Shown: one piece after another, positions 2,784-59,721 of the stretch
Layout: each line of letters begins with the position of its first letter
Position numbering within the stretch: position 1 is the stretch's first letter
From: a candidate division WOR-3 bacterium
Lineage (GTDB): Bacteria > Hydrothermota > Tepidihabitantia > SM23-42
Direction: 5' to 3'
Length of the DNA stretch: 64,000 bases
Assembly (NCBI GenBank): GCA_027026255.1
Contig: JALVOT010000014.1
Location: 23,986 to 87,985, forward strand
The notes under the pieces: generated by a model
Told to the model about the DNA's origin: nothing
The model's input: only the letters and a program-made list of their open reading frames with translations
The model's database searches: none
Made by a program: the position numbers and the translations under genes

Positions 2784-2811
2784 ATTATAATCAGAATAAC
2801 CAAATCGTCAA
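2784..2811 (-). promoter_or_regulatory. sigma70-type promoter for pstSCAB: TTGACG, 16 bp, TATAAT, 9 nt before the GTG start
   Basis: Read directly on the minus strand: -35 at 2806-2811, -10 at 2784-2789. Confidence 0.5.
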
Positions 2812-2850
2812 TAAAATAATTCATCACTCAGGTAAATGATTCGATAACCT

Positions 2851-3033
2851 ATGATTTTTTCTAAACTTCTTAACATCAATCTTTATTCTGGATTTAAAAA
2901 TCGCCATTCAGGAGGGGTGGCGAGTTGTGGTTCAAGTGTTGAGGAGGCATTTAAAAATCTGAAAGAGGCAGTGGAGCTTTATCTTGAAAATGCCCGTGAA
3001 TTAGGATTACTGGAGCAAATTGAAGCTGAATGA
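2851..3033 (+). CDS. HicB-like (UPF0150) antitoxin-family small protein, no HicA partner
   Basis: C-terminal stretch SCGSSVEEAFKNLKEAVELYLENARELGL resembles the HicB/UPF0150 motif (GC.SQG.TLEEAL.NAKEA.ELYLE). No toxin ORF adjacent. Confidence 0.35.
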   Translation: MIFSKLLNINLYSGFKNRHSGGVASCGSSVEEAFKNLKEAVELYLENARELGLLEQIEAE

Positions 3034-3078
3034 TTTTTCAAGGGGAAATTTCATAATTGTATTATTAAAATATATGAA

Positions 3079-3513
3079 TTATTTGCCAAAGTCAATTTTT
3101 ATATTTATATCAGAAGGCACACGAAATCGTAATAAAATTTTAGAATCACCACTTAAGCGTTGTTTTTCAGCTCTAAATAGTATATTGAGATGTATAGAAT
3201 TATCATTTGTTTTTTCTGCTTGATTAGTAGTATTAGAAGAAAAATGATGTAGGTGTGCTTTTATATTGAGATATCCAGAAAAAGTGTTGTTCAATTTATC
3301 GATTGTTAAATAGCCAATAGCATCGGTTGTTCCTTCTGACAAGGAATATAGAAAACCATTAGCTTTATGGTAAAGAAATGATTTTATGGAGTCAGATTCA
3401 ATATTTACTGAGTCCATCAGGCAAGTATTAAATTTAATACATAAGAAATAATTATGTTGTATAACATCAAGATCATACATACTTGGTGATGCATAGTATC
3501 CATAGATTACCAA
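3079..3513 (-). CDS. Hypothetical protein, possibly an orphan toxin-tip remnant (TTG start)
   Basis: 144 aa ORF lying directly 3' of a degenerate Rhs core-end relic (3522-3545) but out of frame with it. No recognisable motif. Confidence 0.3.
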   Translation of the reverse strand: MVIYGYYASPSMYDLDVIQHNYFLCIKFNTCLMDSVNIESDSIKSFLYHKANGFLYSLSEGTTDAIGYLTIDKLNNTFSGYLNIKAHLHHFSSNTTNQAEKTNDNSIHLNILFRAEKQRLSGDSKILLRFRVPSDINIKIDFGK

Positions 3514-3521
3514 TACAGAGT

Positions 3522-3545
3522 AGTTTCCTTAAGGGGTTATTGATA
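3522..3545 (-). repeat. Degenerate relic of the Rhs core 3' end (encodes ..NNPLR..)
   Basis: ccttaaggggttattga matches the block encoding VNNPLRF at 7555-7571 and 5624-5640. Confidence 0.4.
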
Positions 3546-3562
3546 CCTTTAGTAACATAGTA

Positions 3563-4024
3563 TCAAATTCCTACAACCAAAAGCTGCAGGAATTTTGGCC
3601 CCATCCATAGAGCGAACCAGGTATTATCACCCTTAATTCGCAACCAGAACCACATAAGTAGAATTACCGCTATTGAACCAAGTAAACAATACCAGCCACT
3701 GATGGTTAAAATTAAACGTAATAACAATGGCGGTTCGAATTTCTTGCTGGCCTTACGAAGTTTAAGAGAAAATATAAAGATGAATATTCCGATCAGAACC
3801 AGAGGTGTTAAACCGATACGCAAAGGGGTAGTATCAGCAACCGTTGGGAATAAATCTGCATACCGTGACCAAGCATCCCAGAGTCTTAATACATATTCAA
3901 AAATGGTATTGAAAATAAAACGTGCGAGTATAGAGTATGGGAAATAGAAAGCAAAAGCACTAAAGAGAATTATAACTGCCCCTAAGAGAAATTTTTTAGT
4001 GAAGAAGTCTTTTATTTGCAGCAT
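3563..4024 (-). CDS. Small polytopic membrane protein, candidate Rhs-toxin immunity protein (paralogue of 4556-5050)
   Basis: 153 aa with about 4 TM segments; shares blocks with the 164-aa protein (PLRIGLTPLVLIGI vs SLRIALTPLLLIGI; ISGWYCLLGSIAVILLMWF vs ICGWYCLVMTSIVILAMWF). Lies just 3' of a cassette-junction relic carrying an intact promoter. Confidence 0.5.
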   Translation of the reverse strand: MLQIKDFFTKKFLLGAVIILFSAFAFYFPYSILARFIFNTIFEYVLRLWDAWSRYADLFPTVADTTPLRIGLTPLVLIGIFIFIFSLKLRKASKKFEPPLLLRLILTISGWYCLLGSIAVILLMWFWLRIKGDNTWFALWMGPKFLQLLVVGI

Positions 4025-4112
4025 TAATGCTCCTATTTATAAAAGTGTGAATTGACCCATTTTTTAGCAAAATAATATTCATCTTAGAGCGAATTTTCAC
4101 ATATTTCCTATC

Positions 4113-5787: not shown

Positions 5788-5802
5788 TTTTCCTTCTTGA
5801 TA

Positions 5803-5830
5803 ATTATAGTAAAATCAAGTGATTTTTCAA
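5803..5830 (-). promoter_or_regulatory. Internal promoter of the orphan toxin cassette (TTGAAA, 16 bp, TATAAT, 15-nt leader with AAGGA)
   Basis: Read on minus strand: -35 at 5825-5830, -10 at 5803-5808, ATG at 5785-5787. Confidence 0.5.
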
Positions 5831-10652: not shown

Positions 10653-10680
10653 TTGATTTAAAGAAAATTATATGTATAAT
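10653..10680 (+). promoter_or_regulatory. sigma70-type promoter (TTGATT, 16 bp, TATAAT) with 21-nt leader and AAGGAGG for the Yip1 gene
   Basis: Boxes and SD read directly upstream of ATG 10702. Confidence 0.5.
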
Positions 10681-10701
10681 AAAATACTAAGGAGGTAGAG
10701 T

Positions 10702-11259
10702 ATGTTAGAAAAGATTAAAGCAATACTATTTCAACCCAAAGAGACCTGGCCCAAGATTAAGGCCGATGGTGAGAATTTCGGTGAGGTCCTAACCAGGTAT
10801 GCGGTGCCTCTGGCAGCAATCCCTGCTTTTTTTGGTCTACTCGGTCATTCAATATTCTTCCGGATATTCTTCGGTTTTTCATTAATCTGGGCGATTGTCT
10901 ATTATATACTGATACTTATTGGACTCTATGTTGAGGGTATTGTGATTAACGCCCTTGCTCCTTCATTCGGTTCAAGACAGGATTCAACTGATGCATTCAA
11001 ACTTGCGGTCTATGCCTATACCCCGGTTTTTGTCGCCGGTATATTGAACATCTTCCCTATGTTGGGGATCCTGGCTTTCCTCATTTCTCTTTATGGATTG
11101 TATCTTTTATACCTGGGTCTGCCGGTTATGATGGAGACACCAAAGGAAAAGGTCATCGGTTATCTTGTGGTGACTATTATCGTTCTGATAATCATATATT
11201 TTATAATCGGCGCAATTTCCACGGCAATTCTTTCTATCTTCTGGAGGCCGCTCTTTTAA
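10702..11259 (+). CDS. Yip1-family membrane protein
   Basis: 185 aa, 5 TM, layout typical of Yip1/DUF1282 proteins; strong SD. Confidence 0.6.
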   Translation: MLEKIKAILFQPKETWPKIKADGENFGEVLTRYAVPLAAIPAFFGLLGHSIFFRIFFGFSLIWAIVYYILILIGLYVEGIVINALAPSFGSRQDSTDAFKLAVYAYTPVFVAGILNIFPMLGILAFLISLYGLYLLYLGLPVMMETPKEKVIGYLVVTIIVLIIIYFIIGAISTAILSIFWRPLF

Positions 11260-11269
11260 ATAGATAATT

Positions 11270-12208
11270 TTATTCTAATACAATTCTGGTTCCGGTCTGA
11301 CCAAGGATTGCCTGGCGTGCCTTGTCAAGGGATGTAATAATAACTTCTTTACCACCCTTTTCTAAAAAAGATATTGCTGATTCAATCTTGGGACCCATAT
11401 TACCCGGGGGGAAATGTCCTTCCTGTAAATATCTCTTCGCCTCAGAAACAGTCAGATTACGCAGCATTTTCTGGTCTGGTTTATTATAGTTCAGGTAAAT
11501 ATATTCAACATTGGTCAGGATTAAAAGGGTTTGAGCCTGAATATCAAAAGCAAGCACTGCCGAGGCACGGTCCTTATCAATTACTGCATCAACTCCTTCA
11601 TATGTTCCATCATTTTCTATATATACCGGGATACCACCACCACCGGCGGCGATAACAATAGTTCCTTCATCAACCAGTTCTCGAATGATACGTCGATTTA
11701 CAATCTTTATGGGTCGGGGTGAGGGCACGACCCGACGATAGCCTTTTCCTGAATCATCTTTTATCACCCAGTTGAATACCTTGGCAAGTTTTTCTGCCTG
11801 GTTTTTTGTATAGAATGGGCCAATAAATTTTGTTGGATTAATAATTGAAGGGTCGTCAGGGTCAACAATCACCTGAGTGACGATTGTAATTACATCCCTT
11901 TTAATACCCATCTGCATTAGTTTATTCTGAAGGCTCTGTTCAATCATATACCCCATACCGCCTTCAGTATCAGCAACAATCACACCCAGGGGCAGAACAG
12001 GAATGTCATGGGCGGTTCTTTCCACGCGCAAAAGGGCATTGCCCACCTGCGGTCCATTACCATGGGTAACGGCGAGGTTATAGCCTTCCTGGATTAATTC
12101 AACAATGCCCATCAATGCCTTTCTTGTATTGGCGAATTGTTCATGAATATTTTCTTTGCCGGTCTGGGCGATGGCATTTCCGCCCAGGGCAACGACTGCC
12201 TTCTTCAT
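11270..12208 (-). CDS. arcC: Carbamate kinase
   Basis: 312 aa; MKKAVVALGGNAI...VTHGNGPQVG...IAAGGGGIPV motifs of the carbamate kinase family. Confidence 0.85.
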   Translation of the reverse strand: MKKAVVALGGNAIAQTGKENIHEQFANTRKALMGIVELIQEGYNLAVTHGNGPQVGNALLRVERTAHDIPVLPLGVIVADTEGGMGYMIEQSLQNKLMQMGIKRDVITIVTQVIVDPDDPSIINPTKFIGPFYTKNQAEKLAKVFNWVIKDDSGKGYRRVVPSPRPIKIVNRRIIRELVDEGTIVIAAGGGGIPVYIENDGTYEGVDAVIDKDRASAVLAFDIQAQTLLILTNVEYIYLNYNKPDQKMLRNLTVSEAKRYLQEGHFPPGNMGPKIESAISFLEKGGKEVIITSLDKARQAILGQTGTRIVLE

Positions 12209-12213
12209 TTTGA

Positions 12214-12241
12214 ATTATAAATATAAACCGATAAAAGTCAA
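12214..12241 (-). promoter_or_regulatory. Leaderless sigma70-type promoter for arcC (TTGACT, 16 bp, TATAAT, 5 nt to ATG)
   Basis: -35 at 12236-12241, -10 at 12214-12219 on the minus strand. Confidence 0.55.
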
Positions 12242-14018: not shown

Positions 14019-14309
14019 TTACTCTTTCCGGGCGAAATTCAGGCGCAGGTTTGTTAACCGTGTCTGGATATCTTTTTTCTCCGCCGTGTCGAGTTCCGGT
14101 TCAATTATCTTGAACAGGGCATCGATTGAATCGATTGCAAGTCGTGCCTGTTTCAGGTCTTTGGTATGGCTCTGGGTTTCAGGATGGGCAACAAAATCCA
14201 TATAAGCCCAGGCCTTTGCCTCAAGCGAAAGGATATTCATTATCACCACCTCTTTTACCCGGATGGGCTTATCCAGCAATTTTTCTTTTTTTTCTTTCTT
14301 TTCAGCCAT
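14019..14309 (-). CDS. Hypothetical 96-aa Lys/Glu-rich protein; same frame as the DUF2723-like ORF, separated by one TAA
   Basis: ATG at 14307-14309 sits 6 nt after a perfect TTGACA, 16 bp, TATAAT promoter. Predicted helical and soluble, no recognised motif. Confidence 0.45.
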   Translation of the reverse strand: MAEKKEKKEKLLDKPIRVKEVVIMNILSLEAKAWAYMDFVAHPETQSHTKDLKQARLAIDSIDALFKIIEPELDTAEKKDIQTRLTNLRLNFARKE

Positions 14310-14315
14310 GGATGG

Positions 14316-14343
14316 ATTATATAAATTTATAAATTTTTGTCAA
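14316..14343 (-). promoter_or_regulatory. Leaderless sigma70-type promoter (TTGACA, 16 bp, TATAAT, 6 nt to ATG)
   Basis: -35 at 14338-14343, -10 at 14316-14321 on the minus strand. Confidence 0.55.
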
Positions 14344-14510: not shown

Positions 14511-14538
14511 TTGATTTTTTTCTGATTTCTTTTATAAT
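14511..14538 (+). promoter_or_regulatory. Leaderless sigma70-type promoter (TTGATT, 16 bp, TATAAT, 5 nt to GTG 14544) for the Nudix gene
   Basis: Boxes read directly; divergent from the promoter at 14316-14343. Confidence 0.5.
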
Positions 14539-14540
14539 CT

Positions 14541-14939
14541 TTGGTGAAGCAGGCGGTCGCAGTTGTGGTCAAAAAGGACGGCAGGTTCCTTTTAATCAGA
14601 CGGGCAAAAAATGATTCAGCACAGGATTATTGGTGTCCGGTAACCGGTGCGGTGGAGCCTGGAGAAAGTCAGGAACAGGCAGTGATACGCGAGGCAAAAG
14701 AAGAAGTTGGAATTGATGTGAAACCGATAAAAAAGGTCTGGGAATGTCCGACTGAGAATGAAGCGTATATATTACACTGGTGGTATGTAAAACTTATTAA
14801 TGAAGAGATAAAACCAAATCCTTTAGAGGTGCAGGATTATTGCTGGGTCAACTATAAGGAAATGGAGCATTTGGATAAGACCTTTAGTGCGGATTTAAGA
14901 TTCTTCAGAGAGTTTGGCTCAGATTTACCCGATTCTTAA
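14541..14939 (+). CDS. NUDIX hydrolase (TTG 14541 or GTG 14544 start)
   Basis: Nudix box GAVEPGESQEQAVIREAKEEVGI matches GX5EX7REUXEEXGU. Confidence 0.75.
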   Translation: MVKQAVAVVVKKDGRFLLIRRAKNDSAQDYWCPVTGAVEPGESQEQAVIREAKEEVGIDVKPIKKVWECPTENEAYILHWWYVKLINEEIKPNPLEVQDYCWVNYKEMEHLDKTFSADLRFFREFGSDLPDS

Positions 14940-19463: not shown

Positions 19464-21113
19464 TCACTCCTTCTCTTTTTCGCCTCTTCGGGCAATCTTT
19501 TTAAAATCACCATCACTAATTTTATAGATATCAAATGCCTGATTCTTCTTGGTGATTTCATCAATCAGGCGCGGTAGAGTTGTCCGGGTATAATTCTTTA
19601 ATACCCTTAACTGATATAGACCTTCAAAGAATCTTTTTGCCAGCTCACCAATCGAACTGATATTCTGGTCTATTATATTGAGCAGTGAGGAATCAGGTTC
19701 CGCCGGGCTGGAAAATATCGCACCCTCAACATATCTTTCACCCAGTCTCGGCACCCTTTCCTTCTTGAATGTCTTTATTCCCAGCAGCTGCACACCCTCC
19801 AGACCATAATATGCAATCTGGGGTGTCGTATTTATAATCATATCTGAACTCATTGCCAAAAATATCGCCTCGGGTTCCATTTTTTTTATTGCCTTAAGTT
19901 GATATTTCAGAGTAATGGAATCAGGGGAGAAACTTATATTTGCCACCACGGTGCGATTATTCTTTATGACCTCCTGGGCGAATGTTCGGGCGATTATATT
20001 ATAATTTTCTTCATCACTGTAGAGGATTGCAAATTTGTTAATACCAAGGTTAAAGATAGCATAGTCGGCGATTATCTTTGCCTGGGTTTCAAAGTTTTCT
20101 TTTCTGGTGAAGACAAGGGGAATCTGTTCAAACCGCGCCTCTTCGGTTATGGGAAGAAAGACAGGAACGCCTTTACCATCCGCAAATCCGCAGATTCCAA
20201 ATGCCTCTCGAGAGCTTACCGGAGCAATGAGAAAATCGACCTGTAAATCATTAATCAGTTTCCGGGCGGCAATGATTGCTTCAATCGGGTCGGATTTTGT
20301 ATCAAGAAGGTGGAGAGAGTATGGAAGTATTTTATTTTTTTCAAATGATTTTATGACTTTGAATAATTCCTTCCCGATATCTTTAAATTTTCCGCTCAGA
20401 GGCAGGAGAACACCGGCCCGGCCGGTGGTTGAACCGAGGTTTATGAATCGCTGGTATTCTTCAATCTCAAATTTATAAGCCGTTTGTGGATAGCGTCGTA
20501 TGAGCAGATTAAAATCCCTTTCGGCCTCTGCTTTTTTCCCCTCGCGGGCTTCAATCTGGGCGAGGTTGTAGAGAATATGTTCATCAACCGGTTCCGCCAT
20601 AAAGATGCGGTGTAATTTTTCCAGTTGTGAAATTGATAGGTTGGGCAGGGTCTTCAGAATGTGCTCAAATGCCTTTGCCCGGGCGATTGTGTCTTTGCTG
20701 CTTGTATAGAATTTTAGAAGATAAAATGATGCCTTATAATCCCTGGCAAGATTGTAATACGACTCTCCCAGGAGTGATAAAGTATTTGTGTAGTATTTTG
20801 AATTGGGGAATTCTTCAATAAAATATTCACCGGTTGAAACCGCCTTTTCAAACCGATTTAGTTTATAATAACAGAATGCAGTGAGGTAGAGGGCAGGTTC
20901 ATAGGCATCACTCTTTTTATATTTTTTAATTATCAGCTGAAACTGTTCTAATGCCCGGGTATATGCCTTTTTGTTAAAATAATCCTGTCCCTTTTCAAAC
21001 AGCGTTATCGCCTTTTCATTGGCATACTCGGCTTCGTATTGCTTGAGTATGCTCGGTTGTATTTGGGCACAACCAAAAAAGAGTATTGGGAGAATTAGAG
21101 ATAGTTTTTTCAT
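19464..21113 (-). CDS. TPR-repeat plus LivK-type periplasmic-binding-fold protein (LpoA-like architecture)
   Basis: About 549 aa; signal peptide with lipobox-like FFGCAQ, N-terminal TPR helices, C-terminal type-1 PBP fold. ATG at 21111-21113 preferred over the TTG at 21116 given by the ORF track. Confidence 0.55.
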   Translation of the reverse strand: MKKLSLILPILFFGCAQIQPSILKQYEAEYANEKAITLFEKGQDYFNKKAYTRALEQFQLIIKKYKKSDAYEPALYLTAFCYYKLNRFEKAVSTGEYFIEEFPNSKYYTNTLSLLGESYYNLARDYKASFYLLKFYTSSKDTIARAKAFEHILKTLPNLSISQLEKLHRIFMAEPVDEHILYNLAQIEAREGKKAEAERDFNLLIRRYPQTAYKFEIEEYQRFINLGSTTGRAGVLLPLSGKFKDIGKELFKVIKSFEKNKILPYSLHLLDTKSDPIEAIIAARKLINDLQVDFLIAPVSSREAFGICGFADGKGVPVFLPITEEARFEQIPLVFTRKENFETQAKIIADYAIFNLGINKFAILYSDEENYNIIARTFAQEVIKNNRTVVANISFSPDSITLKYQLKAIKKMEPEAIFLAMSSDMIINTTPQIAYYGLEGVQLLGIKTFKKERVPRLGERYVEGAIFSSPAEPDSSLLNIIDQNISSIGELAKRFFEGLYQLRVLKNYTRTTLPRLIDEITKKNQAFDIYKISDGDFKKIARRGEKEKE

Positions 21114-21120
21114 CAATCAG

Positions 21121-21148
21121 ATATTACTCAAAAATGCGTATATGTCAA
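21121..21148 (-). promoter_or_regulatory. Leaderless sigma70-type promoter (TTGACA, 16 bp, TAATAT, 7 nt to ATG 21113) for the LpoA-like/queG/radical-SAM operon
   Basis: -35 at 21143-21148, -10 at 21121-21126 on the minus strand. Confidence 0.5.
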
Positions 21149-21379: not shown

Positions 21380-21407
21380 TTGATTTTTTAAGAAATCTAT
21401 TTAATAT
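21380..21407 (+). promoter_or_regulatory. Leaderless sigma70-type promoter (TTGATT, 16 bp, TAATAT, 5 nt to ATG 21413)
   Basis: Boxes read directly. Confidence 0.5.
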
Positions 21408-21412
21408 TAGCT

Positions 21413-22573
21413 ATGCGATATTTAATGATAATCAATGTGCTTTTTGTTTCTATTCTCAGTAACTGCACCCACTACATAAAATATACTCCGGATCCGGAAA
21501 GGGATATCGGAGATTGGGTAAAGAACTTTAATTGCCAGAAATCATTTCATTATTCATATAAATTGCAGACCGCCTGGCTCTCTTCGACAGCCGAGGGTGA
21601 TTGTATTATCGGCCTCGGTGAGCATATCAAGGGGACCTGGCAAAGGCCAGAATCTACGGTCAATTTTGAATATATTGGATTAGGGGATATCGAGTATATT
21701 AAAAAGGATGGAAAATGGGAACGGGCAGTAAGGGGGGAAGAATCCAATATATTTGAGCAGATTAAGCGGATAATGGAGTTTGACAGCTTTGTATATAAGG
21801 GGTTTGAACAGGGATACTGGTATCAATTTAAACCGAATATTCCATTCCTTGCCCCAAAGAGATGGCGCGATATGAAGGGATATCTTAAAATTTCTGAGAA
21901 GACATTTTTGCCTGAATTTATCTGGGCTGGACTGCCAGATTCAACGACATTTTATCAAATAAGTTTAGAGCGGTATAATAAGATAAGAGGTATAAAACCG
22001 CCGCGCCATAATTATAATCTATTTACCGTCGATATCAATATTGAACCCCGGCATGGACTTGGCTTAATTAATAAGAGGTTGAAACTGATTGGTCTGAATT
22101 ATCAACTTAAGATTCAGGATTCGGTTCTGGTGCTGAGGGTACCGGACTATTATCGTGGGACCGACCTTGAGTCGGCACTTGCTCCCGGAAGCCTTGAGGT
22201 CTGGGGCTTAACCAAACTCAAGGCAGAATCAAAAAGGGTTATATACATTAATGAGGATATTAAAAAACCAGTCTATCTTACAGGAAAATTACTGAATAAC
22301 CGCGATATTAAGGATGCACGGATTCGTTTTGATGAACGGCACCGACCCTATATTTTACTAAAACTTAAGAAGAAGTTTAAATTTCCTGAAGAGGTCGTCT
22401 TTCTATCTGATCACCGTTTGATAGCTGCGGTAAAACTTGACACCAGAAGAAAAATGGATAAAATAAGGCTGCTGACAGAAATGGAATATTATCGCATTGA
22501 ATTCCTCAGAGCCGGAATTATCCAGCCATTGCCCCCTTTGAAACTGAAAATTTTTAAAAAGGGGAGTAGTTGA
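21413..22573 (+). CDS. Hypothetical secreted protein or lipoprotein, first gene of the GT2 operon
   Basis: 386 aa with N-terminal signal peptide (MRYLMIINVLFVSILSNC); no recognised catalytic motif; stop overlaps the GT2 start. Confidence 0.5.
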   Translation: MRYLMIINVLFVSILSNCTHYIKYTPDPERDIGDWVKNFNCQKSFHYSYKLQTAWLSSTAEGDCIIGLGEHIKGTWQRPESTVNFEYIGLGDIEYIKKDGKWERAVRGEESNIFEQIKRIMEFDSFVYKGFEQGYWYQFKPNIPFLAPKRWRDMKGYLKISEKTFLPEFIWAGLPDSTTFYQISLERYNKIRGIKPPRHNYNLFTVDINIEPRHGLGLINKRLKLIGLNYQLKIQDSVLVLRVPDYYRGTDLESALAPGSLEVWGLTKLKAESKRVIYINEDIKKPVYLTGKLLNNRDIKDARIRFDERHRPYILLKLKKKFKFPEEVVFLSDHRLIAAVKLDTRRKMDKIRLLTEMEYYRIEFLRAGIIQPLPPLKLKIFKKGSS

Positions 22574-34055: not shown

Positions 34056-34083
34056 TTGACTTTGTCCGGATTTTGTCTATAAT
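34056..34083 (+). promoter_or_regulatory. Leaderless sigma70-type promoter (TTGACT, 16 bp, TATAAT, 6 nt to ATG 34090)
   Basis: Boxes read directly. Confidence 0.55.
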
Positions 34084-34089
34084 AAGAAT

Positions 34090-34320
34090 ATGCTGAAGCG
34101 TGTTTATGTTTCTTTAGATGAATTTACTGCGATAACACTTAAGACAATGCTTGAGGGGAAAGGTATTAAGGCGATGGTTCGCAGGTTTGAGACAACCTGG
34201 CTTAACGGTTTACCGAAATTTATGGAAGGCGGCTGGGGAGAAATTTTGGTTCCGGAAGATGATAAAGAACTGGCTGAAAGATATATTCAGGAATTTCTCA
34301 AAGACAGCAATCAGGATTAA
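34090..34320 (+). CDS. DUF2007-like small protein
   Basis: 76 aa; family assignment from overall pattern only. Confidence 0.4.
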   Translation: MLKRVYVSLDEFTAITLKTMLEGKGIKAMVRRFETTWLNGLPKFMEGGWGEILVPEDDKELAERYIQEFLKDSNQD

Positions 34321-37985: not shown

Positions 37986-39274
37986 TTTTTCTCGGTTCTC
38001 CTTATCTCTGCTTTACCATATTTAATATAATGAACAAGCGGGATTCTTGCCGGACAACTGTAGGCACAACATCCACATTCAATACAATCCAAGGCGCCAA
38101 ACTCCTTTGCCGTTTTGAACCGGCGGTTTTTGACAAATTTATAAATTTCCGTAGGCATCAAGCCCATAGGGCAGACATCAATACAACTGGCACAGCGCAC
38201 ACATGGACCTTCAGGAAATGTTTGTGCCCTGGCCCGGACAATTATCCCTGATGTGCCTTTGATTACCGGGACCTCGTCGGTGAATTGGGCAATGCCCATC
38301 ATCGGGCCGCCAAAGATAATCTTCTTTGGTGGGTTTGTGTATCCGCCGCAGTGGTTTATTACATCTATCGCCCGGGTTCCAATACGGACGAGAAGATTTT
38401 TCGGTTCTTTTATACCATCGCCAGTAACCGTAACAACCCGGTCGATCAATGGTTTACGGTATTTTGCCGCTTGGAATGCAGCATAGGCAGTTCCAACATT
38501 CTGAACCACACATCCAACATCCATCGGCAGGCCTCCCCTGGGGACCTCACGATTGAGCACCGCCTTAATCAACTGTTTCTCTGCACCTTGAGGATATTTT
38601 GTCTTTAAAATTACCACTTCAACGCCTTCTTTTTTTAAGACATCGGCGGCATCAAGTTTATTATTTTCAATTGCGAATATGAGCCGGGGTGCATCTAAAA
38701 CACGCTGGAATAAACCGGCGCCTTCAATTATGCCAATCGGGTATTCCAGAATTAATCGGTGATCAGCAGTAAGCATTGGTTCACATTCACAGCCGTTTAT
38801 AATAATGGTATCTATCTTTTTACCCTCAGGTGGAGATAGTTTGACATAGGTTGGAAATGCTGCACCCCCCAGACCCACGATACCGGCTTCTTTAATGATC
38901 TCAATAAGTTCTTTGCGGCTTAAGGATTCATAATTCTGCTTTACCTTAACGCCTTGTTCCCATTCATCCTGATTATTTGATTCAATAATACAGCAGAGTG
39001 ACTCTCCGACAACCGGGTGGGGATATTTTTTGATATCCACCACCGTGCCTGAAATACTTGAATGGACCGAACTGGAAATAAAGCCATCTGCTTCACCGAT
39101 CTTTGTGCCTACCTTTACCTCATCGCCCTTTTTTACCAGGGGAAGTGCTGGTTTGCCAGTATGCTGAGAAAAGGGGATATAGACCCTTTTTGGTAAGGGC
39201 ATCGCCTCAATAGCAATCTTTTCAGTATATTTTTCTTCGTGGGGATGAACTCCACCAGAAAATCCCTTTGCCAT
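37982..39274 (-). CDS. rnfC: Rnf electron-transport complex subunit C (start refined to ATG 39272-39274)
   Basis: Two 4Fe-4S motifs (CASCIDVCP; CIECGCCAYSCP) and NADH-binding fold. The internal ATG (MAKGFSGGVHP...) lies 7 nt after a consensus promoter, so the TTG at 39292 in the ORF track is rejected. Confidence 0.85.
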   Translation of the reverse strand: MAKGFSGGVHPHEEKYTEKIAIEAMPLPKRVYIPFSQHTGKPALPLVKKGDEVKVGTKIGEADGFISSSVHSSISGTVVDIKKYPHPVVGESLCCIIESNNQDEWEQGVKVKQNYESLSRKELIEIIKEAGIVGLGGAAFPTYVKLSPPEGKKIDTIIINGCECEPMLTADHRLILEYPIGIIEGAGLFQRVLDAPRLIFAIENNKLDAADVLKKEGVEVVILKTKYPQGAEKQLIKAVLNREVPRGGLPMDVGCVVQNVGTAYAAFQAAKYRKPLIDRVVTVTGDGIKEPKNLLVRIGTRAIDVINHCGGYTNPPKKIIFGGPMMGIAQFTDEVPVIKGTSGIIVRARAQTFPEGPCVRCASCIDVCPMGLMPTEIYKFVKNRRFKTAKEFGALDCIECGCCAYSCPARIPLVHYIKYGKAEIRRTEKK

Positions 39275-39281
39275 ATCAAGC

Positions 39282-39309
39282 AGTATAGTCAATTTTTTTC
39301 CAAAGTCAA
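39282..39309 (-). promoter_or_regulatory. Leaderless sigma70-type promoter (TTGACT, 16 bp, TATACT, 7 nt to ATG) for rnfCDGEA
   Basis: -35 at 39304-39309, -10 at 39282-39287 on the minus strand. Confidence 0.5.
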
Positions 39310-39724: not shown

Positions 39725-39752
39725 TTGACAAGTAATAGTTATTAGATATAAT
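39725..39752 (+). promoter_or_regulatory. Leaderless sigma70-type promoter (TTGACA, 16 bp, TATAAT, 6 nt to ATG 39759)
   Basis: Perfect consensus hexamers. Confidence 0.6.
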
Positions 39753-39758
39753 TTCATT

Positions 39759-40775
39759 ATGATGCTTAAGAGATTGAGTGAGTTATATGGTGTGAGTGGT
39801 GATGAGGAAGAGGTGAGAAATTTTATCAAACTACAGATTAAGGATGATGTCGATGATATGATTGAAGATGCCTATGGTAATTTGATTGCCCGTAAAGGAA
39901 AGAAAAAGCTTCCTAAGATAATGCTTGCTGCACATATGGATGAGGTTGGCTTTATGATCACTGCGGTTGAAAAGAACGGCCTTTTGAGGTTTCGTTCGAT
40001 TGGAATATTGCCCCAGGTGGTTCTGGCAAAACGGGTGGCATTTCGTAATAAAGATATCAAAGGGGTTATTGGTGCGAAACCTGTCCATCAATTAAAACCT
40101 GAAGAACAGAAAAGTATCCCAGAACCGGACCAACTATTTATTGATATCGGGGTTAGTAGCAAGGAAGAGGCAGAAAAATTGGTGCAGGTGGGTGATTACT
40201 GCACATTTGATACCCGATTCCGCAGGCAGGGTAATACCATTTTTGGAAAGGCGTTTGACAATCGGGTCGGTTGTTATGTGCTTATTCAATTAATAAAAAA
40301 TTATGACCTACCATGTTATTATACCTTCACCGTGCAGGAGGAGTTGGGATTGATGGGTGCCCGTATCGCCGGTTATCGTATTGACCCGCAGATTGCCCTG
40401 GCAGTTGATACGACCGCATCAGGAAAATGGCCGACAGAAAAGGATCTTCCTCAATATCCTGAATTAAATAAGGGACCGGCAATCAGTATCGCCGACCGTT
40501 CTGTAATCTGTGACAAAGAATTAACCGGGCTTATAATCAAAACCGCCCAGGAAAACAGTATACCATATCAGTTCAAAAGGCCGATGATTGGGGGGACCGA
40601 TGCCGGGGAGATTCATCTTGTTAAAAGAGGTGTGAAGAGTGCGGTATTATGCACACCAGCCCGATATATCCATTCACCACTCTCTATCGCTTCATTAAAG
40701 GACATTGAGGCGTTGATTAAATTATTGAACCTAAGTATTAAAAAGATTTTAACCAGGGGAGAACTATGGAATTGA
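39759..40775 (+). CDS. M42-family metallo-aminopeptidase (FrvX/TET-like)
   Basis: 338 aa; AAHMDEVGFMI, metal-ligand contexts; tandem with a paralogue. Confidence 0.8.
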   Translation: MMLKRLSELYGVSGDEEEVRNFIKLQIKDDVDDMIEDAYGNLIARKGKKKLPKIMLAAHMDEVGFMITAVEKNGLLRFRSIGILPQVVLAKRVAFRNKDIKGVIGAKPVHQLKPEEQKSIPEPDQLFIDIGVSSKEEAEKLVQVGDYCTFDTRFRRQGNTIFGKAFDNRVGCYVLIQLIKNYDLPCYYTFTVQEELGLMGARIAGYRIDPQIALAVDTTASGKWPTEKDLPQYPELNKGPAISIADRSVICDKELTGLIIKTAQENSIPYQFKRPMIGGTDAGEIHLVKRGVKSAVLCTPARYIHSPLSIASLKDIEALIKLLNLSIKKILTRGELWN

Positions 40776-51736: not shown

Positions 51737-51764
51737 TTGACATTCATTGGAAATTGGTTATTAT
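51737..51764 (+). promoter_or_regulatory. sigma70-type promoter (TTGACA, 16 bp, TATTAT, 13 nt to ATG 51778) for the trehalose synthase gene
   Basis: Boxes read directly; supports the internal ATG as start rather than ORF-track 51592. Confidence 0.5.
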
Positions 51765-51777
51765 AATAGTAGTTATT

Positions 51778-53961
51778 ATGGTCAAATTGATAATTGTTTC
51801 CAATCGCTTGCCGATTACCGTTGTAAAACGGGAAGGAAGATTAAAATTTAATCCCAGTGTTGGTGGACTGGCAACCGGACTTGAATCTTTTTATAAATCG
51901 TATAACAGTATCTGGGTAGGCTGGCCGGGGACGGCGGCGGAAAGAATAAAAAATGAGAAAGAACAGATATACGAGAGATTGACGAAAGATAATTCCTATC
52001 CGGTGTTTTTGAAACAACATGATATTGATTTATATTACCACAGTTTCTGTAATAAAACAATCTGGCCCCTTTTTCACTATTTCACCCAGCATACAAGCTA
52101 CAATAAAAAATCCTGGCAGGCATATAAACGGGTAAATGATATTTTTTGCAAAGAGGTCTTGAAAGTCGCCCGTGCTGAAGACAAGATATGGGTTCACGAC
52201 TATCAATTGATGCTATTGCCGAAGATGTTAAGGGAAAAATTACCCGAGGCGACAATCGGTTTTTTTCTTCACATTCCTTTTCCATCTTCTGAGGTCTTCA
52301 GACTTCTTCCCTGTAGAAAGGAGATTATTGAAGGTATTCTCGGTGCCGACCTTGTCGGCTTTCATACCTATGACTATGTGCACCACTTTATTGAATCGAT
52401 AAGAAGATTATTGGGTTATGAATTCAGTCTTGGCCAGATTGCCGCCCTGAATCGTATCATAAGGGTTGATGCATTCCCCTTAGGAATTGACTATGAAAAG
52501 TATGCCCGGGCCGCTGATAGCCAATCGGTCCAGAATGAGATTAAGAAGATAAGAAAAAAGGTGGGGGATAGGAAGATTATTATTTCTGTGGACCGCCTCG
52601 ATTATACAAAGGGCATTCCTCAGCGTCTTGAGGCATTCGAATATTTTCTTGATAAATATCCTGAGTATCGTGAAAAGGTAACTATGATACTTGTTGCAGT
52701 ACCCTCCCGCACCGGGGTCGAGCAGTATGCCCAGTTAAAAAGGAGTGTTGATGAATTAATAAGTCGCATAAATGGCGAATATGGAACCCTGAGCTGGATG
52801 CCCATCTGGTATCTTTACAGATTTCTTCCATTTCACAACCTGATTCCTTTATATCGTATCGCAGATGTTGCTCTTATTACACCCTTAAGGGATGGGATGA
52901 ACCTTATTGCCAAGGAATTTATTGCGACCAAAACTGATAAAAAAGGTGTTTTAATATTGAGTGAGATGGCGGGAGCAGCAATGGAGCTTGGGGAGGCGAT
53001 TATTGTAAACCCCAATAACAAAGAAGAGATCGCCCGGGCAATAAAAACCGCCCTTGAGATGCCGGCGTCGATTCAGATAAAAAATAATGAAGTGATGCAG
53101 CAGCGATTGAAACGCTACAATGTTGAACGCTGGGCAAATGATTTTATGGATAGGCTCTATCATATTAAGAAGATTCAACAGGACCTCAGTGCCAAAAGAT
53201 TTACACCAAATATAAAGGCGAAATTATTGGAAGATTATCAGCATAGTAAAAAAAATCTTATCCTGCTTGATTATGATGGAACATTGATTGAGTTTGTAGA
53301 ACAGCCGGGGCAGGCAAGACCCGACAATGATGTTCTCGGTTTACTCAGGCTTCTTACTGAAAAGAAGAAGAATGAAGTTGTCATTACCAGTGGTCGGCAA
53401 AAAGATATCTTAGATGAGTGGTTTCATGGATTACATCTAAATTTTATTGCCGAGCACGGGGTCTGGATAAAAAAGAAGAATAGTAACTGGCAATTGATTG
53501 AACCCCTGCGGAATGATTGGAAGGAACAGATAAGGCCAATCCTGGAATTATATGTTGACCGCACCCCGGGTTCACTTATCGAAGAAAAGGAATTTTCCCT
53601 GGTCTGGCACTATCGGAAGGCGGACCCAAAGCTTGCGGCAATCAGATTGGGTGAATTGAAGGATGCCCTTATGCATCTGACTGCAAACTTTGATCTTGGG
53701 GTGCTTGAAGGAAGTAAGATTATTGAAATAAAAAATATGGGGATAAATAAAGGAAGGGCGGTATTGCAGTGGTTAACCGAGATAGACTGGGATTTTATCC
53801 TTGCGATCGGTGATGACTGGACCGATGAGGATACATTCGCAATCTTACCCGAAATTGCCTATTCCATCAAGGTCGGGCTGGGGATATCAAAGGCAAAATA
53901 TAGTATTCCATCCCCACAGGAGGTCAGGAATTTGTTGCATGAACTGGTCGTCAAATATTAA
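51778..53961 (+). CDS. Bifunctional trehalose-6-phosphate synthase / trehalose-6-phosphate phosphatase (OtsA-OtsB fusion)
   Basis: N-terminal GT20 domain (HDYQLMLLP; HIPFPSSEVF); C-terminal HAD phosphatase (LLLDYDGTL; GDDWTDED). Confidence 0.8.
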   Translation: MVKLIIVSNRLPITVVKREGRLKFNPSVGGLATGLESFYKSYNSIWVGWPGTAAERIKNEKEQIYERLTKDNSYPVFLKQHDIDLYYHSFCNKTIWPLFHYFTQHTSYNKKSWQAYKRVNDIFCKEVLKVARAEDKIWVHDYQLMLLPKMLREKLPEATIGFFLHIPFPSSEVFRLLPCRKEIIEGILGADLVGFHTYDYVHHFIESIRRLLGYEFSLGQIAALNRIIRVDAFPLGIDYEKYARAADSQSVQNEIKKIRKKVGDRKIIISVDRLDYTKGIPQRLEAFEYFLDKYPEYREKVTMILVAVPSRTGVEQYAQLKRSVDELISRINGEYGTLSWMPIWYLYRFLPFHNLIPLYRIADVALITPLRDGMNLIAKEFIATKTDKKGVLILSEMAGAAMELGEAIIVNPNNKEEIARAIKTALEMPASIQIKNNEVMQQRLKRYNVERWANDFMDRLYHIKKIQQDLSAKRFTPNIKAKLLEDYQHSKKNLILLDYDGTLIEFVEQPGQARPDNDVLGLLRLLTEKKKNEVVITSGRQKDILDEWFHGLHLNFIAEHGVWIKKKNSNWQLIEPLRNDWKEQIRPILELYVDRTPGSLIEEKEFSLVWHYRKADPKLAAIRLGELKDALMHLTANFDLGVLEGSKIIEIKNMGINKGRAVLQWLTEIDWDFILAIGDDWTDEDTFAILPEIAYSIKVGLGISKAKYSIPSPQEVRNLLHELVVKY

Positions 53962-56975: not shown

Positions 56976-57019
56976 CAAAAAATTATGAATCTTAAGCCTA
57001 TGAAAAGGAGGTTTGTCCG

Positions 57020-58234
57020 ATGAGACGCACCCTGGAGGATTATCGCAATATTGTTGGTGATGATGTCATTTATAAAATATACCATTTATCAAGGGGACTG
57101 TGCGGGAAGTCGCTTGTTCATATTAATTCAACATATTATGGTGGAGGTGTGGCTGAGATATTGAGTGCCCTTGTGCCTTTGATGAATGATGTGGGTTTAT
57201 CTGCCGGGTGGAGAATCCTGCGCGGGACGCCAGATTTTTTTAATATTACCAAAAAATTTCATAATGCTTTGCAGGGAGATACGATACATCTTACTAAAAT
57301 AAAGAAGCAGTTATATATGCAGGCAAATGAGGATTTTTCCACCTATAGTCATATTGATCATGATTGTATTATAATCCACGATCCACAGCCACTACCCCTG
57401 ATAAATTTTTATAAAAAACGGCAGCCCTGGATCTGGCGTATTCATATTGACCTTTCACATCCCGATACAAAACTCTGGAATTATCTTAAAAAATTTATTT
57501 TGAAATTTGATGTAATAATACTTTCCCATGAAGATTATCGGCGGCCTGATATTCCAGTGGAACAGGTTATTATTCATCCGGCAATTGATCCGCTGTCGAC
57601 GAAGAATATGGATGTTAGTGATAAAACGATCAGTAAAACTCTGAAAAAATTTGATATTCCCACCGATAAACCGATTATCAGTCAGGTGTCAAGGTTTGAT
57701 AAGTGGAAGGATCAGGAAGGGCTGATTGAGATTTATCATCTGGTTCGGAAAAAGATTGATTGCCGTCTGGTTCTATGCGGTAGTATGGCTACTGATGATC
57801 CGGAATCCCAGCAATATTATGAACGCATCAAGAGAAAGGCGAATAATCTGATAAAAAGCAAAGATATCATTTTGATTACCAGTGAGAATAATATTCTGGT
57901 AAACGCCCTCCAGCGCCGTTCATCGGTTGTGATTCAAAAGTCATTGCGAGAGGGCTTCGCTCTGACTGTGACCGAGGCATTATGGAAGAGTAAGCCGGTT
58001 ATTGCATCAGATATTGGTGGAATACCGCTGCAGATAAAGGATGGTGAAAATGGTTTTCTGCTTGACCCTGAGGATTATGAGGGATTTGCCGACCGGATTT
58101 TACGGTTATTAAAAAATCCTAAACTTGCTGCTAAACTCGGCGAAGCTGGAAGAGAAGTGGTGAAGAAGAAATTTTTAATCACAAGGTTATTAACTGATTA
58201 TCTGAATCTCCTCCAGAAACTTTTGATAAAGTGA
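57020..58234 (+). CDS. GT4 glycosyltransferase, TreT-like trehalose synthase candidate
   Basis: 404 aa; N-terminus EDYRNIVGDD...VHINSTYYGGGVAEIL...FFNITKKFHNALQG resembles archaeal/bacterial TreT as I recall it; linked to OtsAB and a sugar ABC importer. Confidence 0.55.
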   Translation: MRRTLEDYRNIVGDDVIYKIYHLSRGLCGKSLVHINSTYYGGGVAEILSALVPLMNDVGLSAGWRILRGTPDFFNITKKFHNALQGDTIHLTKIKKQLYMQANEDFSTYSHIDHDCIIIHDPQPLPLINFYKKRQPWIWRIHIDLSHPDTKLWNYLKKFILKFDVIILSHEDYRRPDIPVEQVIIHPAIDPLSTKNMDVSDKTISKTLKKFDIPTDKPIISQVSRFDKWKDQEGLIEIYHLVRKKIDCRLVLCGSMATDDPESQQYYERIKRKANNLIKSKDIILITSENNILVNALQRRSSVVIQKSLREGFALTVTEALWKSKPVIASDIGGIPLQIKDGENGFLLDPEDYEGFADRILRLLKNPKLAAKLGEAGREVVKKKFLITRLLTDYLNLLQKLLIK

Positions 58235-58246
58235 TACATATTTCAT

Positions 58247-58702
58247 ATGTCTGACTTTTATCGAATTGCTTGTAATATCCAGAAGCTGATTGATGAGGAG
58301 TTGAACAGGGGATACGGCAGGAAGGCGATTGAACACTGGCATAATCCAAAAAATTGGGGGATTATGAATAAGGCGGATGGTTATGCTAAAATTACCGGTC
58401 CCTGTGGTGATACAATGGAGATTTCTATTCTGGTTGAGGATAACAGGATTATAAAATGCACATTCGATACCGATGGCTGTGGTGCTACAGTCGCCTGTGG
58501 TAGTATTGTAACCGAGCTGGCGACAGGTAAATCTATTTTCGCGGCAAGGCAGATAGACCAGCAAAAGGTGCTTGACTATTGCGGAGGATTCCCCGACGAG
58601 AATACACATTGTGCACTGCTTGCTGCCAATACCCTGCAGAGGGCGATTGATAAGTATCTTCAAGATTCTAACTTACCCTGGAAAAAATTTTATAGAAAAT
58701 AG
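58247..58702 (+). CDS. NifU/IscU-like Fe-S cluster scaffold-domain protein
   Basis: 151 aa; three conserved Cys contexts (GPCGD; DGCGA; HCALLA). Confidence 0.65.
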   Translation: MSDFYRIACNIQKLIDEELNRGYGRKAIEHWHNPKNWGIMNKADGYAKITGPCGDTMEISILVEDNRIIKCTFDTDGCGATVACGSIVTELATGKSIFAARQIDQQKVLDYCGGFPDENTHCALLAANTLQRAIDKYLQDSNLPWKKFYRK

Positions 58703-58707
58703 GTTAT

Positions 58708-59688
58708 TTAAAGGGTGAACCCTGAACTCCGGGCATCGACCGATAGGCTTGAAGGCCCAAATTTTTTAAATCTTTTTGAGCCCGCCAGTCCAATCATTAC
58801 TCCGTTGTCAGTGCAGAACTGAAGACTGGTTAGATATAATTTTATTTTTTCTTTTTTGGCGAGATTTTTAAAGTATTCGCGCAGCCGTTGATTGGCTGAG
58901 ACACCGCCAACAATTCCCAGGCCCTTGACCTTTGTCTGTTTTAAACACCTTTCAGTAACTTCAATAAGATGTTTGATTGCTGATTCCTGAAAATTTGCGA
59001 CGACATCCGGCCGATTATAATAGGGATTATTTTTTACATAATACAAAACCGCGGTCTTTAAGCCTGAATAACTGAAGTTGAATTTTGATGGTCTTGGAAC
59101 AGGAAACTTTATCTTACCCAGCCTGCCTTTAGCAGCCTCTTTCTCAATATATGGTCCACCCGGATAAGGAAGCCCGGTTAATTTTGCTACCTTATCAAAT
59201 GCCTCACCACAGGCATCGTCAAGGGTTCGGCCCATAGTTTTATAGCTAAATTCCTTTTGTACAAGCACGATTTCAGTATGGCCTCCTGATACAATGAGCA
59301 CAAGATATGGATAGGCGGGTTTACTTCCATCAAGTTGCAGAGAATAGATATGTCCTTCAAGATGGTTTATTCCTATGAAAGGTTTATTAAGACTTATGGC
59401 AATAGATTTTGCAAAGGAGAGTCCAACCAGAAGTGAGCCAACCAGGCCTGGTCCATAAGTAGCCGAGACAAGGTCGATATCTGATAATTTTATGTTTGCA
59501 ATCTCAAGGGCGAGTTTTGTCAGGGGCATTATTACCTTGATATGGTTTCTTGCGGCAATTTCCGGCACCACACCACCAAATTTTGTATGTGCAATCTGGG
59601 ATGAGACGATATTCGCCAGGACATTTTGGTCCTTAATAATACCGACTGCGGTTTCATCACAGGATGTTTCAATACCCAGGGTTATCAT
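58708..59688 (-). CDS. tsaD: tRNA N6-adenosine threonylcarbamoyltransferase TsaD (start refined to ATG 59686-59688)
   Basis: MITLGIETSCDETAVGI...; Kae1/TsaD motifs. The 102-codon upstream extension in the ORF track is rejected because a consensus promoter ends 5 nt before this ATG. Confidence 0.85.
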   Translation of the reverse strand: MITLGIETSCDETAVGIIKDQNVLANIVSSQIAHTKFGGVVPEIAARNHIKVIMPLTKLALEIANIKLSDIDLVSATYGPGLVGSLLVGLSFAKSIAISLNKPFIGINHLEGHIYSLQLDGSKPAYPYLVLIVSGGHTEIVLVQKEFSYKTMGRTLDDACGEAFDKVAKLTGLPYPGGPYIEKEAAKGRLGKIKFPVPRPSKFNFSYSGLKTAVLYYVKNNPYYNRPDVVANFQESAIKHLIEVTERCLKQTKVKGLGIVGGVSANQRLREYFKNLAKKEKIKLYLTSLQFCTDNGVMIGLAGSKRFKKFGPSSLSVDARSSGFTL

Positions 59689-59693
59689 ACCCA

Positions 59694-59721
59694 ATTTTAT
59701 CCAAACTGCATTGAAAATCAA
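59694..59721 (-). promoter_or_regulatory. Leaderless sigma70-type promoter (TTGATT, 16 bp, TAAAAT, 5 nt to ATG) for tsaD
   Basis: -35 at 59716-59721, -10 at 59694-59699 on the minus strand. Confidence 0.5.

Follow-up and report, generated by a model that had tools for sequence, protein, structure and literature searches.

Putative leaderless gene starts behind compact sigma-70-type promoters in a candidate division WOR-3 genome

The cI transcript made from the lambda promoter PRM and other model leaderless messenger RNAs (mRNAs) begin with a 5'-terminal AUG, carry no upstream ribosome-binding site and are bound directly by the ribosome and initiator tRNA. Genomes rich in leaderless genes make up group C of the GeneMarkS-2 classification, in which the -35 box is weak. 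The -10 box of this group is a degenerate TANNNT (PMC3160421, PMC6028130) and lies, as a Pribnow box, 6-8 nt from the starts of first-in-operon genes (PMC6028130), and about 25-60% of operons are affected in the genomes known to use leaderless genes (PMC6028130, PMC3160421), the share given for group C being 25-50% (PMC6028130). Group C is concentrated in the Actinobacteria (Mycobacterium tuberculosis, Streptomyces) and Deinococcus-Thermus (D. deserti) (PMC6028130), and its members using genetic code 11 are nearly all high in guanine plus cytosine (GC) content (bioRxiv 10.1101/2022.07.25.500264); in medium-GC genomes of Aquificae and Chloroflexi, a full TAtaaT box has been described about 10 bp upstream of the start (Zheng et al. 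2011, PMC3160421). In the Fibrobacteres-Chlorobi-Bacteroidetes (FCB) superphylum, surveys of cultured genomes have found almost no leaderless genes (PMC3160421, PMC6028130, bioRxiv 10.1101/2022.07.25.500264), with 90% of FCB genomes assigned to group B (PMC6028130) and leaderless genes present in just 1 of 37 Bacteroidetes/Chlorobi genomes (PMC3160421). Here we analyze a 64-kb stretch of a candidate division WOR-3 genome (assembly GCA_027026255.1, contig JALVOT010000014.1, positions 23,986 to 87,985; hereafter the window), in which ten genes are preceded by compact promoter elements ending a few nucleotides before the start codon. These elements are, with high probability, genuine sigma-70/sigma-A-type WOR-3 promoters placed so that transcription starts at, or within about 3 nt of, the A or G of the start codon.

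Promoters, start codons and initiation modes

A preliminary description of the window had proposed that at least ten genes carry a near-perfect -35 hexamer, a 16-bp spacer and a -10 hexamer ending 5-9 nt before the start codon, and a direct sequence check located all ten sites at their coordinates and on the expected strand (Table 1). The sites follow one grammar, consisting of a TTGAC(A/T/G) or TTGATT -35 box, a 16-bp spacer in 10/10 cases, a TATAAT-like -10 box and, after a gap of 5-9 nt counted from the end of the -10 hexamer, an ATG or GTG start codon. Eight of the ten match the consensus at 10 or more of 12 positions; the wording "near-perfect" fails for g21413 (8/12) and tsaD (9/12), two weaker sites that are conserved in relatives. 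The list was also incomplete, since it missed a class of promoters followed 14-15 nt later by a start codon, with only a Shine-Dalgarno (SD) site between, as well as otsAB, which encodes trehalose-6-P synthase/phosphatase.

By three independent tests, the frequency of this motif lies far above that expected by chance for the base composition. TTGACA-N16-TATAAT with at most one mismatch occurs 16 times in the window, compared with 0.85 ± 0.84 expected (maximum 4) in 100 dinucleotide-preserving shuffles of the whole window, and the enrichment is confined to the 16-bp spacer, with spacers of 12-15 and 17-22 bp giving 1-2 matches each, which is the chance level. A position weight matrix (PWM) trained solely on promoters from other genomes recovered 10/10 of the proposed sites, with scores of at least 16.5 bits for nine. 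The same matrix placed a site ending 5-9 nt before the start of 10 window genes, compared with 0.02-0.03 on average, and never more than 2, in 1000 shuffles of the same 45-nt upstream regions. Because these very regions yield almost no sites once shuffled, their AT-rich intergenic composition is insufficient as an explanation. Across the 22 transcription-unit heads of the window, the gaps were 5 nt (four heads), 6 nt (three), 7 nt (two), 9, 13, 14, 15 (two), 21, 44, 50 and 79 nt, and the matrix scan found no recognizable promoter at the remaining four. Leaderless-type gaps (5-9 nt) thus occur at 10/22 window heads. The sites conform to the sigma-70 housekeeping arrangement (TTGACA/TATAAT, 17 ± 1 bp), with a spacer that is within range but shifted and unusually rigid.

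Table 1. Promoter elements and associated starts in the window (gap and leader lengths in nt; scores in bits from the matrix trained on other genomes).
Gene or operon	Hexamers	Promoter	Element	Strand	Gap or leader	Start codon	Score	Remarks
pstS	TTGACG-N16-TATAAT	2811-2784	2772..2811	-	9	GTG 2774	19.2	
arcC (carbamate kinase)	TTGACT-N16-TATAAT	12214-12241	12206..12241	-	5	ATG 12208	23.4	
DUF1844 (96-aa ORF)	TTGACA-N16-TATAAT	14316-14343	14307..14343	-	6	ATG 14309		12/12 match
Nudix	TTGATT-N16-TATAAT	14511-14538	14511..14546	+	5	GTG 14544	18.6	not TTG 14541
LpoA-like/QueG/radical-SAM operon	TTGACA-N16-TAATAT	21121-21148	21111..21148	-	7	ATG 21113	16.5	
g21413/GT2/C25 peptidase operon	TTGATT-N16-TAATAT	21380-21407	21380..21415	+	5	ATG 21413	17.6	
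DUF2007	TTGACT-N16-TATAAT	34056-34083	34056..34092	+	6	ATG 34090	25.9	highest score in the window
rnfCDGEA operon	TTGACT-N16-TATACT	39282-39309	39272..39309	-	7	ATG 39274	21.6	not TTG 39292
M42 peptidase long operon	TTGACA-N16-TATAAT	39725-39752	39725..39761	+	6	ATG 39759		12/12 match
tsaD	TTGATT-N16-TAAAAT	59694-59721	59686..59721	-	5	ATG 59688	11.7	not ATG 59994
otsAB	TTGACA-N16-TATTAT	51737-51764	51737..51780	+	13	ATG 51778	17.8	without SD
Leadered gene	TTGAAA-N16-TATAAT	5803-5830	5788..5830	-	15	ATG 5787		gap holds only AAGGA
59-aa ORF (short-gap SD class)		4191-4218	4218-4176	-		4175		
104-aa ORF (short-gap SD class)		29064-29091	29091-29049	-		ATG 29048		AAGGAGGT
Leadered gene (short-gap SD class)		33901-33928	33928-33887	-	14			GAGG
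Yip1	TTGATT-N16-TATAAT		10653..10704	+	21-nt leader			leader with AAGGAGGT
SPFH		16587-16560		-	50-nt leader			leader with SD
treT		56948-56975		+	44-nt leader			leader with SD
Response regulator		59988-60015		+	79-nt leader			leader with SD

The start codons used for these distances are fixed from the protein side. In carbamate kinase, RnfC and the Nudix protein, the Pfam match sets in at residues 2-4: position 1 of the AA_kinase profile falls on residue 2 of carbamate kinase, position 2 of RnfC_N on residue 4 of RnfC, and the NUDIX domain begins at residue 4 counted from GTG 14544. Canonical N-termini are present in TsaD (MITLGIETSCDET), carbamate kinase (MKKAVVALGGNA), RnfC (MAKGFSGGVHP) and OtsA (MVKLIIVSNR). 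Lipoprotein signal peptides with a lipobox cysteine are found in PstS (a PBP_like_2 protein by Pfam, with N-terminus VRYFLMLLTFTMLTC), in the LpoA-like protein (MKKLSLILPILFFGC) and in g21413, and require the proposed starts, so that downstream starts are disfavored. Homolog lengths agree with the leaderless start for carbamate kinase (311-315 aa). TsaD measures 326 aa from ATG 59688, with homologs of 326-340 aa and a source annotation of 418 aa, and RnfC measures 430 aa from ATG 39274, which is the modal homolog length, with a recurrent over-extension to 436 aa that is also found in the source annotation. The start corrections put forward earlier for rnfC and tsaD are borne out by these lengths; that for the LpoA-like gene is matched by the ATG at gap 7 in a relative (locus L084), and that for the Nudix gene by another (locus L087), where an ATG with an equal gap aligns with GTG 14544. 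ATG 34090 of DUF2007 is likewise given by an independent gene call. The long otsAB open reading frame (ORF) runs for 789 aa from TTG 51592 (window 51592-53961, + strand), whereas the true ATG 51778 gives 727 aa, with N-terminus MVKLIIVSNRLPITV; position 2 of the GT20 profile corresponds to residue 65 of the long ORF and to residue 3 from ATG 51778, and the L087 ortholog, which has the same promoter, is called at 727 aa. Among in-frame downstream starts of the leaderless genes, none has an SD-like match above 4-5 nt.

Initiation signals were compared through the predicted duplex energy between the 20 nt upstream of each start and the anti-SD sequence, with -6 kcal/mol or stronger counted as an SD site. 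Such sites precede 0/10 leaderless heads (mean +0.16 kcal/mol), 6/7 leadered heads (mean -9.8 kcal/mol) and 14/34 operon-internal genes (mean -4.3 kcal/mol). Strong energies or visible SD sequences support the earlier observation that SD-led genes coexist with the leaderless type: energies of -12 to -13 kcal/mol are found for Yip1, SPFH, TreT and the 104-aa ORF at 29048, and one of -6.3 kcal/mol for the aminotransferase described as hisC, and the 28548 ORF, which encodes a 60-aa membrane protein, is preceded by AAAGGAGGT. Promoters with a -10 box ending 14-15 nt ahead of the ATG form a discrete class with nothing but an AAGGAGG-type SD site in between, and this class is also found in a relative (locus L003, ~9911-9960). 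The predicted leader of about 8-9 nt would begin at or inside the SD site.

Some leadered genes show additional structure. Two units located downstream of the RHS-repeat gene have near-duplicate promoter and leader sequences, at 4191 and 5803 (TATAATtatcaa[ta]aaggaaa). In the treT leader (56948-57023, + strand), a 12-codon mini-ORF, ATGAATCTTAAGCCTATGAAAAGGAGGTTTGTCCGATGA, encoding MNLKPMKRRFVR followed by a stop, begins 9 nt past TATAAT; it contains the SD site of treT, and its TGA stop overlaps the treT ATG (ATGA). The treT ortholog of L087 (~7220-7300, - strand) has the same mini-ORF arrangement, encoding MNLKPKKRRLNQ followed by a stop. The mini-ORF may be a leaderless upstream ORF or a leader peptide coupled to treT translation.

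Lineage and conservation

The carbamate kinase of the window is 79-81% identical to proteins named candidate division WOR-3, and TsaD (~70%) and RnfC (67-69%) are likewise closest to WOR-3-named proteins; for the M42 peptidase, the closest match is an unclassified metagenome-assembled genome (MAG; 63%), followed by a TA06 bacterium (47%). Synteny is shared with WOR-3 contigs. Judged by its closest protein homologs and this synteny, the organism belongs to candidate division WOR-3. A placement in the Bacteroidota had already been argued against in the preliminary description, despite a type IX secretion system (T9SS)-type domain in the window, and this inference is correct. WOR-3 belongs to the FCB superphylum, and the T9SS-type cargo (in the window a C25 peptidase, in relatives Por_Secre_tail proteins) fits this placement. 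The Bacteroidota -7 motif TAnnTTTG (sigma-ABfr) gave 59 matches in the window compared with 66.9 ± 8.1 expected. A sigma-ABfr promoter identity was rejected on this lack of enrichment.

Conservation of the architecture was examined in 12 loci from other WOR-3 or related genomes (39-50% GC), located around orthologs of the M42, arcC, tsaD and rnfC genes. The arcC promoter is kept as TTGAC[AT]-N16-TATA[AC]T-5 nt-ATG in 5/5 genomes, that of tsaD as TTGATT-N16-TA[AC]AAT-5 nt-ATG/GTG in 5/5, that of rnfC as TTGAC[TG]-N16-TATACT-7 nt-ATG in 4/4 and that of the M42 gene as TTGACA-N16-TATAAT-6 nt-ATG in 2/2, the L003 ortholog being 63% identical and having a different upstream neighbor. The arcC and tsaD alignments contain no gaps between the -35 box and the ATG, whereas the flank upstream and the sequence of the spacer have diverged. 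Every genome compared has the identical idiosyncratic -35 box at tsaD, so that its low consensus match is no sign of a weak case, and the unusual C in the -10 box of rnfC is kept throughout as well. DUF1844 orthologs in L084, L085 and L086 have the promoter with a 5-6 nt gap, and L084 carries TTGACA-N16-TATCAT, 7 nt and ATG at the LpoA-like ortholog and TTGATT-N16-TAATAT, 6 nt and ATG at the g21413 ortholog. In L087, the Nudix ortholog has TTGATT-N16-TATAAT with gap 5 and an ATG where the window has GTG, and encodes MKQAVAVV. Further leaderless-type heads in relatives include smpB, rpsT (S20), parA, gidA, prsW, phzF, an ArsR-type regulator and LEA2, with smpB, rpsT, parAB and gidA counted among the housekeeping cases. 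Yip1, MamF and aldehyde dehydrogenase genes have SD leaders in all genomes examined, the Yip1 leader being kept in L083-L085. A TA06 locus (L004; 31% GC, without gene calls) has a 16-bp spacer in 9/12 promoters and two possible leaderless genes, and three FCB-related loci (L029, L035 and L069) yielded nothing useful.

We then pooled 13 WOR-3 loci, comprising 299 kb, and collected strong promoters followed within 120 nt by a plausible gene start. The gene-start filter requires a short open stretch upstream, as a bare criterion of an ORF of at least 60 aa did not discriminate, in-frame codons inside genes also passing it. The pool contains 81 gene-proximal promoters, and in 47 of these (58%) the start codon follows after 4-9 nt: 20 at 5 nt (the mode), 13 at 6, 8 at 7 and 4 at 8. 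Gaps of 10-12 nt are found in 0/81, so that the distribution of distances is quantized, and a second small cluster lies at 14-16 nt, where the leader consists of the SD site alone. The spacer is 16 bp in 72/81, and the leaderless class starts with 42 ATG, 4 GTG and 1 TTG codons. In Firmicutes control loci taken from the same M42 search, a gap of 4-9 nt occurs in 6/64 promoters and a 17-bp spacer in 44/64, and in Chloroflexota loci a gap of 5-9 nt occurs in 7/67, with spacers mostly of 17 bp. In a mismatch-based scan, the WOR-3 loci differ from both Firmicutes (Fisher test, p = 2.6e-7) and Chloroflexota (p = 7.6e-6).

Annotation and other features of the window

These promoters put start-codon prediction in WOR-3 MAGs systematically at risk by misleading automatic gene callers, and the rule TTGAC-N16-TATAAT-N5-7-ATG corrects mis-set starts. 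Over-extended calls include TsaD (418 vs 326 aa, 59689-59994), RnfC (436 vs 430 aa, 39275-39292) and the ORF-track version of otsAB (789 vs 727 aa), and many database homologs are over-long (TsaD 353-418 aa, RnfC 436-467 aa). In relatives, Nudix and ArsR-type starts are truncated by 5-6 codons, and RnfC in L091 by 2, with respect to the gap-5 or gap-7 ATG, while an ABC ATPase start is called 25 codons too far upstream. The mis-set starts are located at P0121, P0241, L084 974-1708, L087 12569, and L091 10001 and 16969. A 58-aa ORF called in the rnfC-M42 intergenic region (~39532-39708) is probably spurious. The operon-internal gene for a solute-binding protein starts at ATG 53939, with a lipoprotein signal peptide in its product, and its first 23 nt lie within the end of otsAB. 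Small ORFs on the minus strand at 53987-54569 are spurious.

Strong promoter-like sites with a 16-bp spacer and 12.8-16.1 bits also occur inside coding regions. One of them (22437-22464, + strand) is situated in g21413, 105 nt before the GT2 gene, and possibly acts as an internal promoter; the others lie in sense orientation within the RHS gene (8357-8384, - strand) and antisense within g21413 (22011-22038, - strand). Between arcC and DUF1844, a 444-aa ORF (12261-14018, - strand) without a Pfam match at E <= 1e-5 occupies the position of a 555-573 aa PMT_2/TMEM260-like gene in relatives. The 423-nt gap upstream contains short minus-strand ORF fragments only, and the ORF is possibly a frameshifted pseudogene or the product of an assembly error. 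The region 3079-10257 (- strand) encodes a 1101-aa RHS-repeat protein without a recognizable promoter, after which come a CAAX protease-like gene and several small membrane ORFs in a row that lack Pfam matches and may be immunity or orphan cassettes. The intergenic regions 16588-17113 (~525 nt) and 10258-10652 (~395 nt) contain no ORF of 60 aa or more, Rfam match or tRNA, and a MamF/MmsF-like gene adjoining QueG is present close to the equivalent position in relatives. Rfam and tRNA scans of the whole window gave no match, and hence no riboswitch or RNA gene accounts for the long intergenic regions.

Interpretation and comparison with known systems

The motif, its statistical excess, its fixed distance to independently verified starts, the absence of SD sites and the conservation within WOR-3 are directly supported, and the feature is real, conserved and well supported. 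A -35 box, 16 bp, a -10 box, 5-7 nt and an ATG form a geometry so compact that the first genes should be leaderless. The sigma-A holoenzyme would start transcription at the purine of the start codon, the 6th to 8th nucleotide downstream of the -10 box, giving an mRNA with a 5'-terminal AUG. In about half of the transcription units, the first gene would be produced as a leaderless mRNA without an SD site. Translation of such an mRNA would proceed, on the model of lambda cI, Mycobacterium and Deinococcus, by direct binding of the ribosome and initiator tRNA to its 5'-terminal AUG. Operon-internal genes and the remaining heads use canonical AAGGAGG SD sites. The modal gap of 5 nt and the 16-bp spacer are each 1 bp below the textbook optimum, and both possibly reflect a lineage-specific geometry of sigma-A and RNA polymerase.

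Several points weigh against this interpretation. The term leaderless is drawn from promoter geometry, from which both the precise point where transcription begins and the way in which ribosomes are recruited are inferred. A 5-nt gap places the A of the ATG at the 6th nucleotide after the -10 box, one position short of the usual preferred start, so that a leader of 1-2 nt or an unusual start-site preference is possible. Promoter position and cross-genome conservation support the earlier proposal that transcripts begin at or within a few nucleotides of the start codon, but pstS (gap 9) and otsAB (gap 13) probably have short SD-less leaders rather than none, pstS being probably near-leaderless, with a predicted 5' untranslated region of 2-3 nt. 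Extra upstream promoters may give leadered isoforms. The comparison with relatives covers arcC, tsaD, rnfC, M42, DUF1844, the LpoA-like gene, g21413 and Nudix, and the sample is limited to 64 kb from this genome plus about 235 kb from its relatives. It is also subject to ascertainment bias, the relatives having been obtained through genes already suspected to be leaderless; removal of up to 12 anchor genes leaves at least 28/53 (53%) promoters of the leaderless type.

Other readings of the same sites fare considerably worse. The disputes between gene callers over several starts, together with in-frame ATG or GTG codons within the first 60 codons of some genes, could mean that the promoters are real and the true start codons lie further downstream, the supposed first codons forming ordinary leaders. 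We regard this as quite improbable, since canonical N-termini, Pfam matches from residues 2-4, signal peptides and homolog lengths all fit the leaderless starts, and the alternative starts have no SD-like match beyond 4-5 nt; this main alternative is ruled out by protein evidence that does not depend on the promoter. The FCB placement of the host, in a superphylum where about 90% of genomes have non-SD AT-rich motifs before genes (PMC6028130), would suit a TATAAT-like element acting in the RNA as an AT-rich, non-SD ribosome- or S1-binding enhancer of the Bacteroidota group B type, with transcription beginning further upstream. The element is, however, absent at operon-internal genes, where AAGGAGG is found instead, whereas group B motifs also precede internal genes (PMC6028130). 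An RNA enhancer would, moreover, leave without any role a TTGAC -35 box that lies always exactly 16 bp upstream and is conserved across genomes, and the Bacteroidota promoter motif is unenriched, which together make this explanation highly improbable.

Dual leadered and leaderless isoforms occur in other bacteria, and this precedent, together with long upstream intergenic regions (466 nt separate rnfC from M42, and 296 nt the LpoA-like gene from g21413), favors the view that the sites are real but accompanied by upstream promoters, the dominant mRNA being leadered in most conditions and the leaderless isoform minor or condition-specific. No second strong upstream promoter was found at a PWM score of 10 bits or more, a leadered isoform would have no SD site for its translation, and the strictly conserved 5- or 7-nt gap argues that selection acts on the leaderless isoform, so that we consider this arrangement unlikely. 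A chance or compositional artifact, arising from AT-rich intergenic DNA and selective start-codon choice, could draw on that AT-richness and on loose 9/12 promoter matches, which are merely ~1.5-fold enriched. Its probability is negligible, given shuffle expectations of 0.85 and 0.02 against 16 and 10 observed, the enrichment of the 16-bp spacer alone, the recovery of all ten sites by the other-genome matrix and the architecture kept in orthologs; we count it as refuted by the whole-window and upstream-region shuffles and by the arcC and tsaD alignments.

Promoters placed for transcription from the start codon thus remain our preferred reading, and we see roughly even chances that leaderless initiation from a compact promoter (16-bp spacer, start 5-7 nt past the -10 box) is ancestral to WOR-3 and found throughout the phylum, and possibly shared with TA06. 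If so, WOR-3 would be the third large leaderless-rich bacterial lineage after the Actinobacteria and Deinococcus-Thermus, and the first of mid to low GC with the standard genetic code. The Bacteroidota, also members of the FCB superphylum, would stand in sharp contrast to it, having given up sigma-70-type promoters as well as SD sites, and the 1-bp shorter spacer and the discriminator would reflect a lineage-specific geometry of RNA polymerase and sigma-A. A search of a limited literature collection found no paper joining "leaderless" or "Shine-Dalgarno" with WOR-3; the mechanism is already known, and what is new is the lineage and the promoter geometry. Our reading would extend abundant leaderless initiation to an uncultured FCB phylum at 40-50% GC, with a bearing on the evolution of initiation modes among FCB lineages, and the rigid promoter grammar offers promoter and 5'-end predictions for this phylum that may be of use in heterologous expression and in reading metatranscriptomes.

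Among described systems, the closest is group C. As in that group, the -10 box lies within about 10 nt of first-gene starts with a sharp peak (10/22 window heads; pooled peak at 5-7 nt, none at 10-12 nt), the share of operons concerned exceeds 25% in the sample (10/22 window heads; 47/81 pooled promoters), and SD sites serve the other genes, with the promoter-like motif absent before internal genes and AUG strongly preferred as the 5'-terminal start. Unlike group C, the WOR-3 genomes sampled here lie at 40-50% GC and inside the FCB superphylum, and have full TTGACA and TATAAT hexamers, a rigid 16-bp spacer and a modal gap of 5 nt instead of 6-8. The architecture agrees, too, with the "TA-led" genes described by Zheng et al. 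(PMC3160421), and shares with Aquificae and Chloroflexi a full Pribnow-like box in a mid-GC genome, although these belong to different phyla and no -35 box or 16-bp rule has been described for them. With the Bacteroidota, WOR-3 shares the superphylum and T9SS-type cargo (C25 peptidase; Por_Secre_tail in relatives), but its promoters are classical sigma-70 and its SD sites strong AAGGAGG sequences, as opposed to the TTTG/TAnnTTTG promoters and non-SD group B initiation of that phylum. Lambda cI, with its 5'-terminal AUG and no SD site, is the presumed mechanistic paradigm; yet cI and its like are isolated cases in SD-dominated genomes, whereas in WOR-3 the corresponding arrangement appears to be the majority mode of operon heads, including those of the housekeeping genes tsaD, rnf and arcC.

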